39,471 nucleotides of DNA from Escherichia phage vB_EcoM_SHAK9454, in sequence record OR594184; one strand, 5' to 3'. Under the pieces are notes generated by a model. It had not been told where the DNA came from. It made no database searches and worked only from the letters and a program-made list of their open reading frames with translations. Positions 2,617 through 38,992 of this stretch are shown piece after piece (position 1 is the first letter of the stretch; each line of letters opens with the position of its first letter). A program made the translations under genes and the position numbers.

Positions 2617-2809
2617 ATCTCACACTTCAAGAACCTCAAGTCTCCCCATAGGCCCTCTTTCAGTCCAGACCAAAGGCCCTACCCCTACCCGTGCCAGTCT
2701 ATCATAAGGTTGGACAGATGGTCAAGACTTAAGGTCAACGATAGGCTGAGGCTATGGCTTAGGGAAGGACGATAGGTTGGGACTATGGGTCTTCTTTGAG
2801 TCTCTATCT
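2617..2809. repeat. Direct terminal repeat, left-end copy (193 bp); genome left end
   Basis: Second tandem copy, offset exactly 193 bp from the first. Confidence 0.9.
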
Positions 2810-2960
2810 GTATAACCATAAGTCACAACCATAGGTCACAGCCTACCTCTCACAACCATAAGCCATAACCTACAGTCTCACTAACCTACAGTCTCACTAA
2901 CCTACAGTCTCAACCATAAGACACCAACACCTAAAGTCATAGACCTACAGTTAATAGACA
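2810..2960. repeat. Array of short direct repeats after the left terminal repeat
   Basis: AACCTACAGTCTCACT repeated about 3 times at 2867-2912; AACCATAAG at 2813, 2853, 2911; analogous to the T7 short repeats flanking its terminal repeat. Confidence 0.7.
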
Positions 2961-3062
2961 CAAGGCTATAGACTTAAGGTCTAAGACATGTTAGTCAAAG
3001 ACTATATCCTCTTACACCATGGGGCCGACGATAGCTTAATCAATATTATTTCAAATTACCTA

Positions 3063-3092
3063 TTGACTATAGGTCCAGACTATGGCCTAATA
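3063..3092 (+). promoter_or_regulatory. Possible host sigma70 early promoter (weak -10)
   Basis: TTGACT at 3063-3068 preceded by an AT-rich stretch; only poor -10 candidates (CCTAAT/CTAATA) 17-18 bp downstream. Confidence 0.25.
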
Positions 3093-3202
3093 GCTTCCGT
3101 CAACACGACACGGCAACAACCGGATAGTGAAGACGCCGGTCCGGTCCGGTTAAGTAGTCAGCCTGTAAGACATACGAACAACAGGCAACCGACAGAAAGT
3201 AG

Positions 3203-3232
3203 TTGACAGGCAGTAACGACTTAAAGTAATAT
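3203..3232 (+). promoter_or_regulatory. Candidate host sigma70 early promoter (A-promoter-like)
   Basis: TTGACA (3203-3208), 18-bp spacer, TAATAT (3227-3232); lies between the left terminal repeat and the first early gene. Confidence 0.45.
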
Positions 3233-3343
3233 GTACCACATCGAAACAACGGTGATGACCAACACTGAATGGTCTACCTGAAGTCCTCTGACTGAAGGGA
3301 ATGCTCTTTAACAATCTGGATAAACTCTTAATGTGCGCCGATA

Positions 3344-3400
3344 GCGACTAACTACAGGGCCTTTGAGTCTACATCTGAAGGCCCTGACTGATAGTCACTA
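3344..3400 (+). promoter_or_regulatory. RNase III-like processing hairpin (early family, copy 1)
   Basis: Imperfect hairpin GACTAACTACAGGGCC ... GGCCCTGACTGATAGTC; conserved CCTGACTGATAGTCACTAAC motif about 20 nt before the start codon. Confidence 0.45.
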
Positions 3401-3418
3401 ACTTAAAGGATGGACACT

Positions 3419-3664
3419 ATGAAACACTTAAGCACAATCACTAATCGCAATGAAGTATTCGTGAACACTAAAGGTTATGCGTGGATTCAGCTTAAAGAGA
3501 TGACAGGAGCGCGTCACCGTGTGGTAGTGCGCAAGGTATCAAGCAAGCAGTTCAGCAACTACAGCGTCGATACTGTGCGTATAGACAACGAGACATACCT
3601 GATAGACTCGCAGATAACCGTGAGTCCTACAGTGGGCGTCTCAGCTCCTTATTTCACTAACTGA
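3419..3664 (+). CDS. Hypothetical early protein (81 aa)
   Basis: ORF with AAGGA 3406-3410 eight nt before ATG 3419; the ATG at 3410 overlaps the RBS and is less likely. Confidence 0.6.
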   Translation: MKHLSTITNRNEVFVNTKGYAWIQLKEMTGARHRVVVRKVSSKQFSNYSVDTVRIDNETYLIDSQITVSPTVGVSAPYFTN

Positions 3665-3666
3665 GA

Positions 3667-3719
3667 GTGATTAACTACAGGTCGTTAGACTGATAGCGGC
3701 CTGACTGATAGTCACTAAC
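3667..3719 (+). promoter_or_regulatory. RNase III-like processing hairpin (early family, copy 2)
   Basis: AACTACAGG ... CCTGACTGATAGTCACTAAC motif upstream of the Ocr-like gene. Confidence 0.45.
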
Positions 3720-3747
3720 ACATAATTAACTTTGAGAGGATATAACT

Positions 3748-4251
3748 ATGGAACGTAATGCTAACGCATACTATGAGCTGCTGGCTACAACCGTTGAGGC
3801 ATTTATCGAGCGTATTCAGTACGACCACCTGACTCAAGATGACGACTACAGCGCTGCGCTGCATGAGGTCGTAGACGGTCAGGTTCCACACTATTACCAC
3901 GAGATTTTTACGGTGATGGCTGCTGATGGTATAGACAACGAGTTCGAAGACTCTGGGATGATACCTGAAACCAAGGACGTAACGCGTATCCTACAAGCTC
4001 GCATCTATGAGGCACTTTATAACGACGTGTCTAATAGCTTGGATGTAGTCTGGTTTGAGGATGAAGAGGCAGACGAAGAGGATGAATATTGGGTAGTTGA
4101 CGCTAAAACAGGCGCAATAATTGTGCAAGCTGTAGCTCTTGAGGTCGCTACTGCATGTGCCAATGTTAACTATGCGGCAGGTCGCCACCTGAAGGTGGAA
4201 GACATCAATGATAACGTAGTGTTCGACCCTGCGGCTGAGGACTGCGAGTGA
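3748..4251 (+). CDS. ocr: Ocr-like DNA-mimic anti-restriction protein (T7 gene 0.3-like) with a ~50-aa C-terminal extension
   Basis: VPHYYHEIFTVMAADGIDNEFEDSGMIPETKDVTRILQARIYE matches the recalled T7 Ocr core; acidic tail EDEEADEEDEYW; ORF continues ~50 codons beyond; strong RBS GAGAGGA. Confidence 0.8.
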   Translation: MERNANAYYELLATTVEAFIERIQYDHLTQDDDYSAALHEVVDGQVPHYYHEIFTVMAADGIDNEFEDSGMIPETKDVTRILQARIYEALYNDVSNSLDVVWFEDEEADEEDEYWVVDAKTGAIIVQAVALEVATACANVNYAAGRHLKVEDINDNVVFDPAAEDCE

Positions 4252-4396
4252 TGGTAACTTATGGCCTCTGCCAGCACCACGTCACTAACGCCCGGCTTAT
4301 GGTCAAGACCGGGCAGTTAGACCACGATTGGGCTATGCGTCTCTTGAAAGTGGTCTACAGGAGACGCAAGCGTATACACGACAGTTTACACGCTAA

Positions 4397-4447
4397 GTGA
4401 CAGACTACAGGTCATCAATGCTGGTGGCCTGACTGATAGTCATTAAC
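4397..4447 (+). promoter_or_regulatory. RNase III-like processing hairpin (early family, copy 3)
   Basis: AGACTACAGG ... CCTGACTGATAGTCATTAAC motif upstream of the ORF at 4464. Confidence 0.4.
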
Positions 4448-4463
4448 AACTGAGAGGGAAGAT

Positions 4464-4691
4464 ATGAACACAATCACTGGTGCCATAACCAAAGGTTTTC
4501 GAGCAATTTTCGGTGAAACGCAAGAAGTATGCACCAATCATAAATTCGTACTTTCTTGCGTAGCAGGTGACGAGTTTGACGGGTTCGATAAACTGGTGGT
4601 TTGCGACCATTGCGGACAAGAGGCTATCCAACACTCAAACGGTAAATTTGAATTAATAGACGATAGCCTTACAGAAGGAGACGGCGAGTAA
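4464..4691 (+). CDS. Hypothetical early protein (75 aa) with Cys pairs, possible zinc ribbon
   Basis: RBS GAGAGGGAAG then ATG; C-x-N-H ... C-x-x-x-x-x-x-x-x-x-x-x-x-x-x-CDHC arrangement; acidic C-terminus. Confidence 0.6.
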   Translation: MNTITGAITKGFRAIFGETQEVCTNHKFVLSCVAGDEFDGFDKLVVCDHCGQEAIQHSNGKFELIDDSLTEGDGE

Positions 4692-4823
4692 CCTAAATAA
4701 ACAGGAGAGAACCAAATCATAGCTTGACCATAACACTGACGTGATGGTACTGAGTGGTAGACGAGAGGTCATCGACTGATAGGTGGCCTCAAAGATTACC
4801 ACTTACATTGATAGGAGTTAACT

Positions 4824-4928
4824 ATGAGCACCGCAATCATCTGGACTATCTCAGGCTTCGTAGCGTGGGGAATGTTTACTCTAGTCTGCAAACTACCGGT
4901 CCTTACTCAACTGTTATGGGGCTTATGA
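4824..4928 (+). CDS. Small hydrophobic peptide (34 aa)
   Basis: AGGAG 4813-4817 six nt before ATG 4824; MSTAIIWTISGFVAWGMFTLVCKLPVLTQLLWGL; stop overlaps the next start (ATGA). Confidence 0.4.
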   Translation: MSTAIIWTISGFVAWGMFTLVCKLPVLTQLLWGL

Positions 4929-5128
4929 CTATGAGTATCGCACTATTGATAGCCATAGGCTATGGAATTATCGCCTACGTGCTGGTGAGAGACATCAACA
5001 AAGCGCGTAAAGTCTACAAATTCAAATATGTACGTCTGGGTAGCTGGACTGTACGTCAACCTAACGGACGATTCATGCGCAACTTAGCGAACGTCTGGGA
5101 TATAGCAACTCTTGGGAGCAAACTGTAA
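4925..5128 (+). CDS. Hypothetical small membrane protein (67 aa)
   Basis: ATG 4925 in frame with track ORF 4754..5128; N-terminal hydrophobic segment MTMSIALLIAIGYGIIAYVLV then basic tail; translationally coupled to neighbours. Confidence 0.5.
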   Translation: MTMSIALLIAIGYGIIAYVLVRDINKARKVYKFKYVRLGSWTVRQPNGRFMRNLANVWDIATLGSKL

Positions 5129-5454
5129 TGAACAAGTCATACGGGATTAATCTGGTACACTCTATGGACGCAGAAATGAACATGTTAAGCCTACTGGCTA
5201 CCGGGTATCGTCACGGAACGTCAAGTCACACCGCACGTCAACAGCAGGAGCGGGACCGTGTACTTCAGGCACGACTTCGGGCCGAGGGCCATAAGTACGA
5301 GCTGATGGGTCTGATATGTGGTGGACGACCAATAACCGACGATGGTAAACTTCTGGTATCAGGCTGGAAGGCGATAGACCAACGGTCATCCATCAAGCAC
5401 ACGACACATGGTGACTTCAGCCATCTTCACGCTAACCCACTGATATGCAAGTAA
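5128..5454 (+). CDS. Hypothetical early protein (108 aa) at the position where T7 has gene 0.7
   Basis: ORF whose ATG overlaps the upstream stop (TAATG); no kinase motifs seen. Confidence 0.6.
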   Translation: MNKSYGINLVHSMDAEMNMLSLLATGYRHGTSSHTARQQQERDRVLQARLRAEGHKYELMGLICGGRPITDDGKLLVSGWKAIDQRSSIKHTTHGDFSHLHANPLICK

Positions 5455-5459
5455 TTATG

Positions 5460-5482
5460 ACTTAACTATCACTATAGGACTC
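5460..5482 (+). promoter_or_regulatory. Phage RNAP promoter immediately upstream of the RNA polymerase gene
   Basis: ACTTAACTATCACTATAGGACTC, +1 G at 5477; leader 5477-5551 contains direct repeats AAGTGAAAGAC x2 and GACTTTAAGT x2. Confidence 0.75.
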
Positions 5483-5551
5483 AAGGTCTAAGACTCAAAG
5501 TGAAAGACCAAAGAGACTTTAAGTGAAAGACTAATAACAAGGACTTTAAGT

Positions 5552-8233
5552 ATGAGCGTCATCTCTATTGACAAACACGACTTCTCTGATGTGTCGAACG
5601 CCATTGAGCCGTTTAACCTGCTGGCTGACCACTACGGGCAAGACCTTGCAGTCAAACAGCTTCAGCTTGAGCATGAGGCATACACTGAAGGCGAGCGACG
5701 TTTCATCAAGAACCTTGAGCGGCAGACTGAGCGCGGGGAACTGGCAGACAATCAGGTCGCCAAGCCTTTGATGCAGACTCTGGTCCCTAAGATTGCGCAA
5801 GCCGTCAGGGAGTGGCACGAAGGCCAAGACGGGAAGCTGTCAACCTCTCGTCCGAGTGTAGCGTTCACCATGTTGAGCACTGAAGAGAAGGCCGTAAAGG
5901 AACGATCTCTGCGCATCTCCTGTGAGTCTGCTGCGGTTATCGTACTGAAGGTCATACTCTCCAAGCTGGTCAAGCCTGAAGGGATCCCGATTACACCTAT
6001 GGCCTCAGCGATAGGTCGCACACTTGAGGACGAAATCCGCTTCGGTCGCATCCGTGACAAAGAGAAAGAGCACTTCAAGAAGGCGATAGCTGATAACCTG
6101 AATAAGCGGGCCGGGGCGTCATATAAGAAAGCCTACATGCAAGCGGTCGAGGCGTCCATGCTGGAGCAAGGCCAACTGGAAGATGCGTGGGGGACTTGGA
6201 GTCCTACAGAGGCCGTCCACGTTGGCATCAAGATGCTCGAGATTGTCATCCAGTCAACACAACTGGTCGAGCTTAAGCGGTACGGTGCTGGTAATGCAGC
6301 GGCTGACGTAGAGATGGTCCACCTGTCAGACTTCTGGGTCAAGAAGATGGCACAACGAGGATTCAGCCTTGCGGGTATCGCCCCAGTCTACCAGCCTTGC
6401 GTCGTCCCACCTAAGCCGTGGACTGGTGTCGTAGGTGGTGGGTACTGGGCCAAAGGTCGCAGACCGTTACCATTGATTCGCTTAGGGTCTAAGTCTGCGG
6501 TAGCACGTTATGAAGACGTATACATGCCTGAAGTCTATGACGCTGTGAATATCATCCAGAATACACCTTGGAAAGTGAACAAGAAGGTATTGGACGTGGT
6601 GAACATGGTCGAGAAGCTGAACAACACGCCTATTGATGACATCCCTCAGATGGAACCGCTGAAGCCTGAGGACTATGCTGGTGAAACCGAGGAGGAACTC
6701 AAGGCATGGAAGAAGGCTGCTGCTGGTATCTATCGCCGCGAGAAGGCCAGACAGTCACGCAGATTATCGCTGAACTTTATCGTTAACCAAGCAAACAAGT
6801 TCTCTCAGTTCAAGGCCATCTGGTTCCCGTACAACATGGATTGGCGAGGTCGTGTCTACGCTGTGCCGATGTTCAACCCTCAGGGTAACGACATGCAAAA
6901 GGGTCTTCTGACTCTGGCAGTCGGTAAGCCTATTGGTGCTGATGGTTTCAAATGGCTGAAGGTTCACGGTGCAAACTGCGCGGGTGTCGATAAAGTCACC
7001 TTCGAGGAGCGTATCAAGTGGGTGGAAGATAACCACGACAACATCATGGCTGCTGCCAAGGCACCGATGGATAGCATTGAGTGGTGGGGCAAGTTAGACT
7101 CTCCGTTCTGCTTCCTAGCGTTCTGCTTCGAGTATGCTGGCGTAATGCACCACGGCTTGTCTTACTCCTGCTCGCTGCCGATAGCGTTCGATGGGTCCTG
7201 CTCTGGGATTCAGCACTTCAGCGCTATGCTTCGTGACCACATCGGTGGACATGCAGTAAACCTGACGCCATCCGGTAAGGTCCAAGACATCTACCGCATT
7301 GTGTCTGACCGCATTGAGGAGCAGCTTAAAGTACTGCTGATTAACGGCACTGACAACGAGATGGTCACTCACGAGGATAAGAAAACTGGTGAGATTACCG
7401 AACGTATCAAGCTGGGGACACGAGAGCTGGCCCGTCAGTGGCTGACATACGGTATGTCACGCAAGGTCACTAAGCGTTCAGTCATGACTCTGGCATACGG
7501 GTCGAAAGAGTACGGCTTCGCAGACCAAGTTTACGAGGACATCGTGATGCCAGCGATTGACTCAGGGTCTGGCGCTATGTTCACTGAACCAAGCCAAGCG
7601 TCTCGCTTCATGGCAAAGATGATTTGGGAAGCTGTGAGTGTGACAGTAGTTGCTGCGGTTGACGCGATGAAGTGGCTTCAAGGTGCTGCCAAGCTGCTGG
7701 CTGCTGAAGTGAAGGACAAGAAGACTGGAGAAATCCTGAAGCCTTGCCTTCCGGTACACTGGGTCACACCTGATGGTTTCCCTGTCTGGCAGGAATACCG
7801 CAAGAAGGACACCACTCGTCTGAACCTGATGTTCTTAGGGTCATTCAACCTTCAGCCTACCGTCAACAAAGGCACGAAGAAAGAGCTGGACAAGCACAAG
7901 CAGGAGTCAGGCATTAGCCCGAACTTCGTCCACTCACAAGATGGTAGCCACCTCCGCAAGACTGTAGTCCACACTCACCGAAAGTATGGCGTGATGTCAT
8001 TCGCAGTGATTCACGATAGCTTCGGGACCATCCCGGCTGACGCTGAGTATCTGTTCCGTGGAGTCCGTGAGACGATGGTAGAGACTTACCGCGATAACGA
8101 TGTGCTGCTTGACTTCTACGAGCAGTTTGAATACCAGCTTCACGAGAGCCAGCGCGACAAGTTGCCTGAGCTTCCGAAGAAAGGTAAACTGAATATCGAA
8201 GACATCTTGTCTTCAGACTTTGCATTCGCTTAA
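5552..8233 (+). CDS. Single-subunit DNA-dependent RNA polymerase (T7 gene 1-like)
   Basis: 893 aa; DGSCSGIQHFSAMLRD (motif A), HDSFGT (motif C), C-terminal DFAFA, specificity-loop region TRLNLMFLGSFNLQP. Confidence 0.98.
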   Translation: MSVISIDKHDFSDVSNAIEPFNLLADHYGQDLAVKQLQLEHEAYTEGERRFIKNLERQTERGELADNQVAKPLMQTLVPKIAQAVREWHEGQDGKLSTSRPSVAFTMLSTEEKAVKERSLRISCESAAVIVLKVILSKLVKPEGIPITPMASAIGRTLEDEIRFGRIRDKEKEHFKKAIADNLNKRAGASYKKAYMQAVEASMLEQGQLEDAWGTWSPTEAVHVGIKMLEIVIQSTQLVELKRYGAGNAAADVEMVHLSDFWVKKMAQRGFSLAGIAPVYQPCVVPPKPWTGVVGGGYWAKGRRPLPLIRLGSKSAVARYEDVYMPEVYDAVNIIQNTPWKVNKKVLDVVNMVEKLNNTPIDDIPQMEPLKPEDYAGETEEELKAWKKAAAGIYRREKARQSRRLSLNFIVNQANKFSQFKAIWFPYNMDWRGRVYAVPMFNPQGNDMQKGLLTLAVGKPIGADGFKWLKVHGANCAGVDKVTFEERIKWVEDNHDNIMAAAKAPMDSIEWWGKLDSPFCFLAFCFEYAGVMHHGLSYSCSLPIAFDGSCSGIQHFSAMLRDHIGGHAVNLTPSGKVQDIYRIVSDRIEEQLKVLLINGTDNEMVTHEDKKTGEITERIKLGTRELARQWLTYGMSRKVTKRSVMTLAYGSKEYGFADQVYEDIVMPAIDSGSGAMFTEPSQASRFMAKMIWEAVSVTVVAAVDAMKWLQGAAKLLAAEVKDKKTGEILKPCLPVHWVTPDGFPVWQEYRKKDTTRLNLMFLGSFNLQPTVNKGTKKELDKHKQESGISPNFVHSQDGSHLRKTVVHTHRKYGVMSFAVIHDSFGTIPADAEYLFRGVRETMVETYRDNDVLLDFYEQFEYQLHESQRDKLPELPKKGKLNIEDILSSDFAFA

Positions 8234-8780: not shown

Positions 8781-8803
8781 CCTAAACTATCACTATAGGA
8801 TTA
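8781..8803 (+). promoter_or_regulatory. Phage RNAP promoter (phi1.1-like)
   Basis: CCTAAACTATCACTATAGGATTAG, +1 G at 8798. Confidence 0.8.
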
Positions 8804-8846
8804 GACTCAAGGTCATGACTCAAAGTCGTGGCCTTCATGATTAACC
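8801..8846 (+). promoter_or_regulatory. RNase III-like hairpin (late family, R1.1-like position)
   Basis: TAGACTCAAGGTCAT ... GTGGCCTTCATGATTAAC; 8-bp stem AAGGTCAT/GTGGCCTT with G-U pairs; same motif at 16014 and 38895. Confidence 0.5.
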
Positions 8847-8873
8847 CTAACTCATTCAATCAGGAGCTACACC

Positions 8874-15849: not shown

Positions 15850-16014
15850 TTGCTAAGAAAACTTAAAGCTCGCTACCATCGGTTCATGTACAAATGGTGG
15901 AGCGATGAAGCAACCTTCCTGTCCAACATTCTGGGAGACCAGAGGTTCAACTCTAAGGCATGGAAGAAAGCTAACCGGAAGTTTATGTACCACTTCTTGC
16001 GTACAGACTTCTAG
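15850..16014 (+). CDS. Small basic hypothetical protein (54 aa, TTG start)
   Basis: AGGAGG 15838-15843 six nt before TTG 15850; the track's longer ORF from 15817 overlaps the helicase 3' end. Confidence 0.35.
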   Translation: MLRKLKARYHRFMYKWWSDEATFLSNILGDQRFNSKAWKKANRKFMYHFLRTDF

Positions 16015-16060
16015 GTCTAGACTCAAGGTCATTCACAGCGAGTGGCCTTTATGATTAGAC
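16014..16060 (+). promoter_or_regulatory. RNase III-like hairpin (late family, R4.7-like position)
   Basis: TAGACTCAAGGTCAT ... GTGGCCTTTATGATTAGAC. Confidence 0.5.
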
Positions 16061-16082
16061 TTATAACTAAAGGAGAAGCAAT

Positions 16083-16514
16083 ATGAGGACTTGCAGTAGA
16101 TGTGGCTCTACAAAGGAGTCCACTGAGTTCAGGAAGACAAATGGGTGGTGCATATCCTGTGTTCGTGAGGATAATAGGTCGCGATATCATCGAAACAAAG
16201 GTACAGAGGCCGGTGAGGCGCATCGCTTATCTGCCCGTAAGTCTTGGCTTAAGAAAGCCTATGGTCTCACACTTGAGGAATATGACACTATGTTCGATAG
16301 TCAAAAGGGCAGATGCGCTATATGCTCAGACATTATCTTCAAGCATGGGTCTATTGAGAGTAAGAATAATGTAGCCCACGTTGACCATTGCCATGACTCG
16401 GGTATTGTTAGGGGATTGCTATGTGGTACATGTAATAGCGCACTTGGTAAGTTCGGTGACAAGGTAGCCGTGCTTAGGGCTGCTATAACGTACTTGGAGA
16501 AATATAATGTTTAA
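16083..16514 (+). CDS. Endonuclease VII-family (T4 gp49-like) nuclease with N-terminal zinc ribbon; homing-endonuclease-like insert
   Basis: CAIC...HVDHCHDSGIVRGLLCGTCNSALG matches the recalled T4 endonuclease VII motif HLDHDH..G.VRGLLC..CN; N-terminal CSRCGS...CISC; AT-rich codon usage. Confidence 0.8.
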   Translation: MRTCSRCGSTKESTEFRKTNGWCISCVREDNRSRYHRNKGTEAGEAHRLSARKSWLKKAYGLTLEEYDTMFDSQKGRCAICSDIIFKHGSIESKNNVAHVDHCHDSGIVRGLLCGTCNSALGKFGDKVAVLRAAITYLEKYNV

Positions 16515-38631: not shown

Positions 38632-38891
38632 CGCAGATGGACTTAGAGAAGTTCCTCTTGATGCTTGATACTGAGCGTGCTCGACTTATGCTGCAAGACT
38701 TGCGGGATGACACTAAGCGTTCACCTCAGCTCTACAACGCCATTGAGAAGCTGCTTGCTCGTCACAACTTTGTGATAAGCAAGGTGTCTGTTGACGAGAA
38801 GACGCTGGCTGATATGGAGGCCCTGAACGCAGAGTACGATAAGGTGCTTTCAGCGACTGAGGATAATGACACCGGGTATGGCGTTCAATAA
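38628..38891 (+). CDS. Terminase small subunit (T7 gene 18-like)
   Basis: 87 aa; ATG overlaps the holin stop; position before Rz and the terminase large subunit. Confidence 0.88.
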   Translation: MTQMDLEKFLLMLDTERARLMLQDLRDDTKRSPQLYNAIEKLLARHNFVISKVSVDEKTLADMEALNAEYDKVLSATEDNDTGYGVQ

Positions 38892-38894
38892 GTG

Positions 38895-38940
38895 TTAGAC
38901 TCAAGGTCATTACTGTATGTAGTGGCCTTTATGGTTAACA
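38895..38940 (+). promoter_or_regulatory. RNase III-like hairpin (late family, R18.5-like position)
   Basis: TAGACTCAAGGTCAT ... GTGGCCTTTATGGTTAAC. Confidence 0.5.
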
Positions 38941-38992
38941 CTAACTAGTGGAGGAGACTCTACGTGCAATCTGATAAACCGGGAGGGCAACT

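Follow-up and report, generated by a model that had tools for sequence, protein, structure and literature searches.

Candidate T7-type RNase III processing signals between the early genes of a K1F-like coliphage

Three copies of one imperfect hairpin in the early region of Escherichia phage vB_EcoM_SHAK9454 are very probably T7-type RNase III processing signals in the early transcript of this K1F-like coliphage, a reading to which we give a probability of about 86% on the strength of sequence comparison and folding. The initial annotation had likened the three hairpins to the early RNase III sites of T7 in position and bulged structure, and that likeness is supported by homology, structure, covariation, and experimentally defined proximal-box determinants. 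The window (the whole stretch of DNA analyzed, 39,471 nucleotides) comprises the whole genome, in circularly permuted form, of a Kayfunavirus (K1F-like; T7 subfamily Studiervirinae). Over positions 2800 to 5600 it is 97.8% identical to Escherichia phages LM33_P1 and LNA5. Window position 2800 corresponds to LM33_P1 position 189, and from this alignment the physical left end is expected at about 2612. The window opens (1-1731) inside a 576-aa ORF, which we take, from position alone, to be a gene 19-like terminase, and a phiOR-like phage promoter is present at 1831-1844.

Repeated hairpins in the early region

A pattern search of the window located the 20-mer CCTGACTGATAGTCAYTAAC on the + strand at 3383-3402, 3700-3719, and 4428-4447. 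No further copy was found in the window even when 3 mismatches were allowed, and 100 shuffles gave 0 matches, so that the chance expectation is 0 versus the 3 copies observed. The 5' arm ACTACAGG starts on the + strand at 3351, 3674, and 4404 only. Each ACTACAGG arm lies upstream of a CCTGACTGATAGTCAYTAAC arm and forms with it a bulged hairpin with an internal loop, 5' of an early gene in all three cases. The statement in the initial annotation that the same imperfect hairpin precedes the start codons at 3419, 3748, and 4464 was thus borne out (three arm pairs, none in shuffles), and the RNA folding of each element that it had proposed as a check was run: all three fold as internal-loop hairpins (z -2.0 to -5.3), with dG values of -25.6, -23.3, and -19.3 kcal/mol for hairpins 1, 2, and 3, respectively. 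Its spacing of 20 to 30 nt to the start codons needs correction, as the gaps between 3' arm and ATG are 16, 28, and 16 nt. Its family of three stands as far as the three copies are real, but these are only a subfamily of seven sites in the window, four of which are early. The seven sites are as follows (CM, covariance model score; the model is described below).

3341..3402, + strand: hairpin 1, RNase III-type (CM 51.1 bits; fold z -4.7); lower stem 3344-3350 with 3392-3398, upper stem 3355 to 3386, loop strands ACUA 3351-3354 (5') and ACUGA 3387-3391 (3')
3664..3719, + strand: hairpin 2, RNase III-type (CM 59.2 bits; fold z -5.3); 3667-3673 paired with 3709-3715 as the lower stem and 3678-3687 with 3694-3703 as the 10-bp upper stem, the loop being formed by 3674-3677 and 3704-3708
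4394..4447, + strand: hairpin 3, RNase III-type (CM 58.0 bits; fold z -2.0); 4397-4403 paired with 4437-4443 as the lower stem (one A.A mismatch) and 4408-4417 with 4422-4431 as the 10-bp upper stem, the loop being formed by 4404-4407 and 4432-4436
4751..4806, + strand: fourth early hairpin, loop ACGA/AAAGA (CM 55.7 bits; fold -27 kcal/mol, z -3.8)
8795..8851, + strand: T7-loop-type site, ACUC/CAUGA (CM 49.4 bits, outside the training set)
16011..16065, + strand: T7-loop-type site, ACUC/UAUGA (CM 54.4 bits, outside the training set)
38889..38945, + strand: T7-loop-type site, ACUC/UAUGG (CM 57.3 bits, outside the training set)

Hairpins 1 to 3 share a lower stem of 7 to 8 bp and an asymmetric internal loop whose 5' strand is ACUA (4 nt) and whose 3' strand is ACUGA (5 nt). 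The upper stem comprises 10 bp in hairpins 2 and 3 and 12 bp with a bulge in hairpin 1. The ORF before hairpin 3 ends within the lower stem of this hairpin (stop codon, 4398-4400), and the fourth early hairpin precedes an ATG at 4824. Stop codons are present in all three frames inside CCTGACTGATAGTCAYTAAC (TGA, TGA/TAG, and TAA), unlike in the T7-type arm CCTTTATGATTATCAC, so that a ribosome reading through from the upstream gene would be stopped there.

The three later sites resemble known T7-group sites in their surroundings. The site at 8795 is directly 3' of a phage promoter (8786-8799), an R1.1/R1.3-like arrangement; that at 16011 is upstream of an ORF at 16083 and of the DNA polymerase gene, an R4.7-like position; and that at 38889 is close to the right end of the genome map, an R18.5-like position.

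The early hairpins are interspersed with the following elements.

3203..3232, + strand: sigma-70-like early promoter, TTGACA-18-TAATAT (10/12 consensus matches)
3419..3664, + strand: early ORF of 81 aa, phrog_10124 (no assigned function), after hairpin 1
3748..4251, + strand: ocr-like anti-restriction gene, 167 aa (phrog_2568, E 1e-51), after hairpin 2
4464..4691, + strand: early ORF of 75 aa, phrog_32657, after hairpin 3
5552-8233: phage RNA polymerase gene

The promoter at 3203 would drive a polycistronic early transcript containing the four early hairpins. No phage promoter (ACTATCACTATAGG) was found between 2800 and 5465. Because the hairpins lie between the sigma-70-like promoter and the RNA polymerase gene in a region with no phage promoter, they are expected to be part of the transcript made by the host polymerase. 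The T7 gp0.7 protein kinase is reported to stimulate RNase III. No homologue of it was found in the whole window (best tblastn E value, 0.83), and the longest ORF between the early promoter and gene 1 encodes no more than 167 aa; with this homologue absent, kinase stimulation of RNase III would not apply here. In several GenBank records (e.g., LT594300, MZ398247, and MH400309), the ocr-like gene is labelled "protein kinase" and the T7-like RNA polymerase is labelled "N4-like RNA polymerase"; both labels look like annotation errors.

Family size, base pairing, and RNase III determinants

The covariance model was trained on the four early window sites, five T7 sites, and five T3 early sites. The R sites are absent from the T7 GenBank and RefSeq feature tables, and we therefore used the annotation of T3 (RefSeq NC_003298), in which R0.3, R0.5, R1, R1.1, R1.3, and five late sites are stem_loop features named "RNase III recognition site." The sequences of T7 R0.3, R0.5, R1, R1.1, and R1.3 were taken from the T7 genome at the coordinates of the sites. 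Searching the window with filters off returned the seven sites at 49 to 59 bits, with the next best match at 12 bits; all seven are on the + strand and between ORFs. As a positive control, the held-out T3 sites R4.7, R18.5, and R6.5 were recovered at 58, 39, and 37 bits, respectively. The model missed T3 R3.8 and R13, which are shorter hairpins, and the window may thus hold undetected sites of this shorter class.

Across 80 related loci, that is, loci encoding related RNA polymerases (58% to 99% identity), the model found 259 sites, all 259 on the transcribed strand. Two to four early sites precede gene 1 in these relatives, typically one to three with the ACUA/ACUGA loop followed by one with ACGA/AAAGA, and almost every Kayfunavirus-like relative keeps a counterpart of the fourth early hairpin as its final site ahead of gene 1. 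In some relatives, the upper stem of the R0.3 orthologue is enlarged to ~85 nt by an insertion (containing GAGTCTACCGCGAGACGGGCTTGACTTGAGCGAC) and the loop and lower stem are kept (L015 820-904, L024 787-870, L025 834-918, L026 715-799, L016 3443-3528, and others). The 20-mer CCTGACTGATAGTCAYTAAC was found only in 15 IMG/VR contigs of 39 to 40 kb. It had 0 matches in 185,579 bacterial and archaeal genomes, and a host interspersed repeat (REP/ERIC-like) is rejected on this ground. An Rfam scan of the whole window gave no family at or above the gathering threshold, and Rfam appears to be without a model for the T7-type RNase III hairpin class. The sites are likewise unmarked in the 30 closest GenBank records listed and in the K1F RefSeq record.

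Base pairing is maintained by compensatory change throughout this family. Covariation was scored in model-fitted alignments that include paralogous and related sequences, so that the following figures overstate independence: in the Kayfunavirus-like loci (74 distinct sites), 95.6% of stem cells pair, compensatory changes are seen in 10 of the 15 pairs, and the score for covariation is 0.548 versus 0.220 in shuffled alignments (0 of 500 shuffles reached 0.548), and in more distant relatives (65 distinct sites), the corresponding values are 94.7%, 11 of 15, and 0.542 versus 0.206. With slid partners as controls, 25% to 54% of cells pair. The signal is nevertheless large. The 4-nt/5-nt loop was present in 136 of the 139 sequences of these model-fitted alignments (74/74 and 62/65), its 3' strand nearly always ends in GA, and U-G pairs are frequent in the upper stems.

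The proximal box of RNase III substrates was defined experimentally by Pertzev and Nicholson as G-C at position 1; A-U or U-A at position 2, where G-C or C-G strongly inhibits binding; A-U at position 3, where substitutions weaken binding in a minimal substrate; and A-U or U-A at position 4, where G-C or C-G blocks catalysis and natural R1.1 has U.C (PMC1540722). The A-U pair at position 3 is an optimum in the minimal substrate and not a strict requirement. Position 1 is G-C in all window sites and in 138 of the 139 distinct sequences. All window sites have A-U at position 2, which is either A-U or U-A in 139/139 and in no case G-C or C-G. At position 3, hairpins 1 to 3 carry C-G, and the relatives are divided among C-G (27), A-U (26), and G-C (20). 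At position 4, hairpins 1 to 3 have an A.A mismatch and not the catalytic antideterminant G-C/C-G.

Proposed processing and alternative readings

In the scheme that we propose, transcription by the host RNA polymerase begins near 3200, at the sigma-70-like promoter(s), and would, as the promoter and terminator scans suggest, yield one long early transcript. Each intergenic element would then form a hairpin with a lower stem and a 10-bp upper stem separated by the 4-nt/5-nt loop, as supported by folding and covariation. Host RNase III would bind the quasi-continuous helix of ~20 bp, reading G-C and A-U at proximal-box positions 1 and 2, and by homology to T7 would cut only in the 3' loop strand, after U3389, U3706, and U4434; the restriction to a single strand is proposed to arise because the loop distorts the helix. 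The predicted scissile bonds are as follows.

3389..3390, + strand: predicted scissile bond of hairpin 1, CCUGACU^GAUAG, by alignment to T7 CCUUUAU^GAU
3706..3707, + strand: predicted scissile bond of hairpin 2, U3706^G3707, by alignment to T7
4434..4435, + strand: predicted scissile bond of hairpin 3, U4434^G4435, by alignment to T7

Dunn and Studier (1983) reportedly placed the T7 cuts after nucleotides 890, 1468, 3138, 5887, and 6448. In the T7 sequence, each of these nucleotides is the third of the 5-nt loop strand (CCUUUAU^GAU), which supports these positions. Judging from what is known of T7, the upstream message would end in a stable 3' hairpin protected from 3' exonucleases, and the downstream message would begin 29 to 41 nt before its start codon; the predicted cuts would leave leaders of 29 nt (ATG 3419), 41 nt (ATG 3748), and 29 nt (ATG 4464). 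The expected outcome is separate, stable messages for each early gene. The hairpin left on the upstream 3' end after a single-strand cut is a stability determinant (PMC3867540, PMC1540722). A literature search for K1F or Kayfunavirus together with RNase III or transcript mapping (the K1F genome paper lay outside its coverage) returned unrelated reviews only.

The early hairpins also delimit gene cassettes. Units consisting of a leader, an ORF, and a hairpin are present upstream of ocr in different numbers: none in L018, L009, L020, and L013, one in the window and in L008, and two in L007. Every unit terminates in the identical 20-nt arm, and the unit of the window (3403-3719, 317 bp, comprising the 81-aa ORF and hairpin 2) is missing exactly at the repeat in the four relatives that have none. 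The corresponding coordinates are 912-1577 in L007 and 1372-1475 in L018. In blastn comparisons with 22 relatives, 39% of the breakpoints, whose endpoints are nonindependent, fell within 25 nt of the four early hairpins versus 15% expected (~2.5-fold). This suggests that cassettes were gained or lost by recombination between hairpin sites. A tentative extension, which we regard as possible but rather doubtful, is that the hairpins, besides being processed, serve as portable end-pieces of early-gene cassettes, with recombination at the arms adding or deleting units and so generating the series of 0, 1, and 2. If this is true, each acquired early gene arrives ready for release as its own stable message.

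The same cassette series, the exact absence of the 317-bp unit, and the excess of breakpoints would also be expected if the repeats were chiefly homologous joints at the DNA level, used for gain, loss, or swapping of cassettes among co-infecting phages, with the RNA hairpin being secondary. We consider this unlikely, as DNA joints need no base pairing, yet the stems pair through compensatory changes and the loop geometry is fixed. The upper stems diverge between copies but stay paired, and the proximal-box pairs fit the RNase III determinants. Breakpoints, moreover, would cluster in intergenic DNA anyway. Recombination at the sites is probably a by-product and not what they are for. Two findings count against RNase III cleavage, namely, the C-G pair at position 3, with which binding of the minimal substrate falls short of its optimum (PMC1540722), and the lack of a gp0.7 kinase homologue to boost RNase III. 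Both would suit hairpins that act uncleaved, either as barriers to 3' exonucleases or to RNase E scanning or by binding RNase III in a way that regulates translation. However, T7 R1 and T3 R1 share the C-G pair and an arm of the CUUA/CUAC type, and T3 R1 is among the annotated processing sites; position 4 carries an A.A mismatch and not the pair that blocks catalysis; and a barrier hairpin would need neither the conserved 4/5 loop nor the conserved proximal-box pairs. An uncleaved role is thus very unlikely in our estimation. Weaker than the idea of portable end-pieces is the possibility that the ACUA/ACUGA loop and the position 3 C-G pair mark a tuned, lower-affinity class of site, specific to the host-polymerase transcript in phages that are without the gp0.7 kinase.

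The location of the hairpins, 16 to 28 nt upstream of start codons, would be compatible with translational operators or leader structures governing the downstream ribosome-binding sites. The Shine-Dalgarno sequences (AAGGA near 3406, GAGAGGA near 3733, and GAGAGGGA near 4450) are located downstream of the stems and are not part of them, which makes occlusion of the ribosome-binding sites unlikely; the same hairpin element, furthermore, is also found after phage promoters and before late genes, which makes an operator role highly improbable. Intrinsic transcription terminators or attenuators, which the G+C-containing intergenic hairpins might bring to mind, have next to no probability: there were 0 terminator-like sites in 2700-5600, versus 1.9 expected from shuffles, and none of the stems is followed by a U-run, so that the sequence contradicts this reading. 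A promoter scan led us to reject the hairpins as sigma-70 promoters. Cleavage by RNase III accordingly remains the preferred reading of hairpins 1 to 3.

The seven window sites are, in all likelihood, unannotated members of the long-known T7-type RNase III signal class, an assignment that is correct but ordinary, and they leave the understanding of RNase III processing itself unchanged. Their main value is in annotation, as the seven sites and three predicted cuts provide testable transcript boundaries for Kayfunavirus phages, which serve phage therapy and engineering. The sites also flag safe insertion points for engineered genes, and the cassette pattern suggests how T7-group phages shuffle small host-takeover genes.

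Comparison with T7, T3, and other RNase III substrates

T7 R0.3, R0.5, R1, R1.1, and R1.3 and the five T3 early sites align with the window hairpins, those of T3 column for column, with AGG...G.CCU being invariant. In the consensus fold of window, T7, and T3 sites, the lower stem has 7 bp, the loop is 4 nt/5 nt, and the upper stem has at least 8 bp; compensatory changes affect 9 of the 15 pairs. T7 R1.1 is the standard in vitro substrate of RNase III. Folded alone, it has the same dot-bracket topology as hairpin 2. R1.1 has been reported to contain an "asymmetric (4 nt/5 nt) internal loop" with a primary RNase III site used both in vivo and in vitro (PMC6121014), and the T7 early precursor of ~7,000 nt carries five processing signals (PMC3867540). 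A 17-nt upstream flank, GCTCTTTAACAATCTGG, is invariant between hairpin 1, T7 R0.3, and T3 R0.3, which identifies hairpin 1 as the positional orthologue of R0.3. The T7 early sites and hairpins 1 to 3 have in common G-C at proximal-box position 1, A-U at position 2, and a 3' loop strand ending in GA, and both groups are intergenic within the host-polymerase early transcript.

There are also differences. Hairpins 1 to 3 combine ACUA, a C-G pair at position 3, and ACUGA, whereas most T7 sites have ACUC, A-U, and UAUGA; among the T7 sites, only R1 shares the position 3 C-G pair, which is also found in T3 R1. In contrast to T7, four early sites precede gene 1 in this phage, and the stretch directly upstream of the gene has no detectable site. 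An R1-like candidate at 5474-5545 (containing ACTCAAGG) was rejected, as its structure was not significant (z -0.5) and there was no CM match. A perfect phage promoter (ACTATCACTATAGG) is present at 5465-5478, ~75 nt 5' of the RNA polymerase gene, unlike in the T7 annotation, which has no phage promoter between the A promoters and gene 1. T3 differs from hairpins 1 to 3 in the same ways as T7.

RNase III substrates more generally include the rRNA precursor stems, the rnc leader, and the lambda N leader. The E. coli enzyme recognizes about two helical turns together with proximal and distal boxes (PMC1540722, PMC3867540). Its cellular rRNA substrates form extended regular helices that are cut in both strands, whereas in the phage class, to which the hairpins described here would belong, the internal loop restricts cutting to one strand and a 3' hairpin is left.
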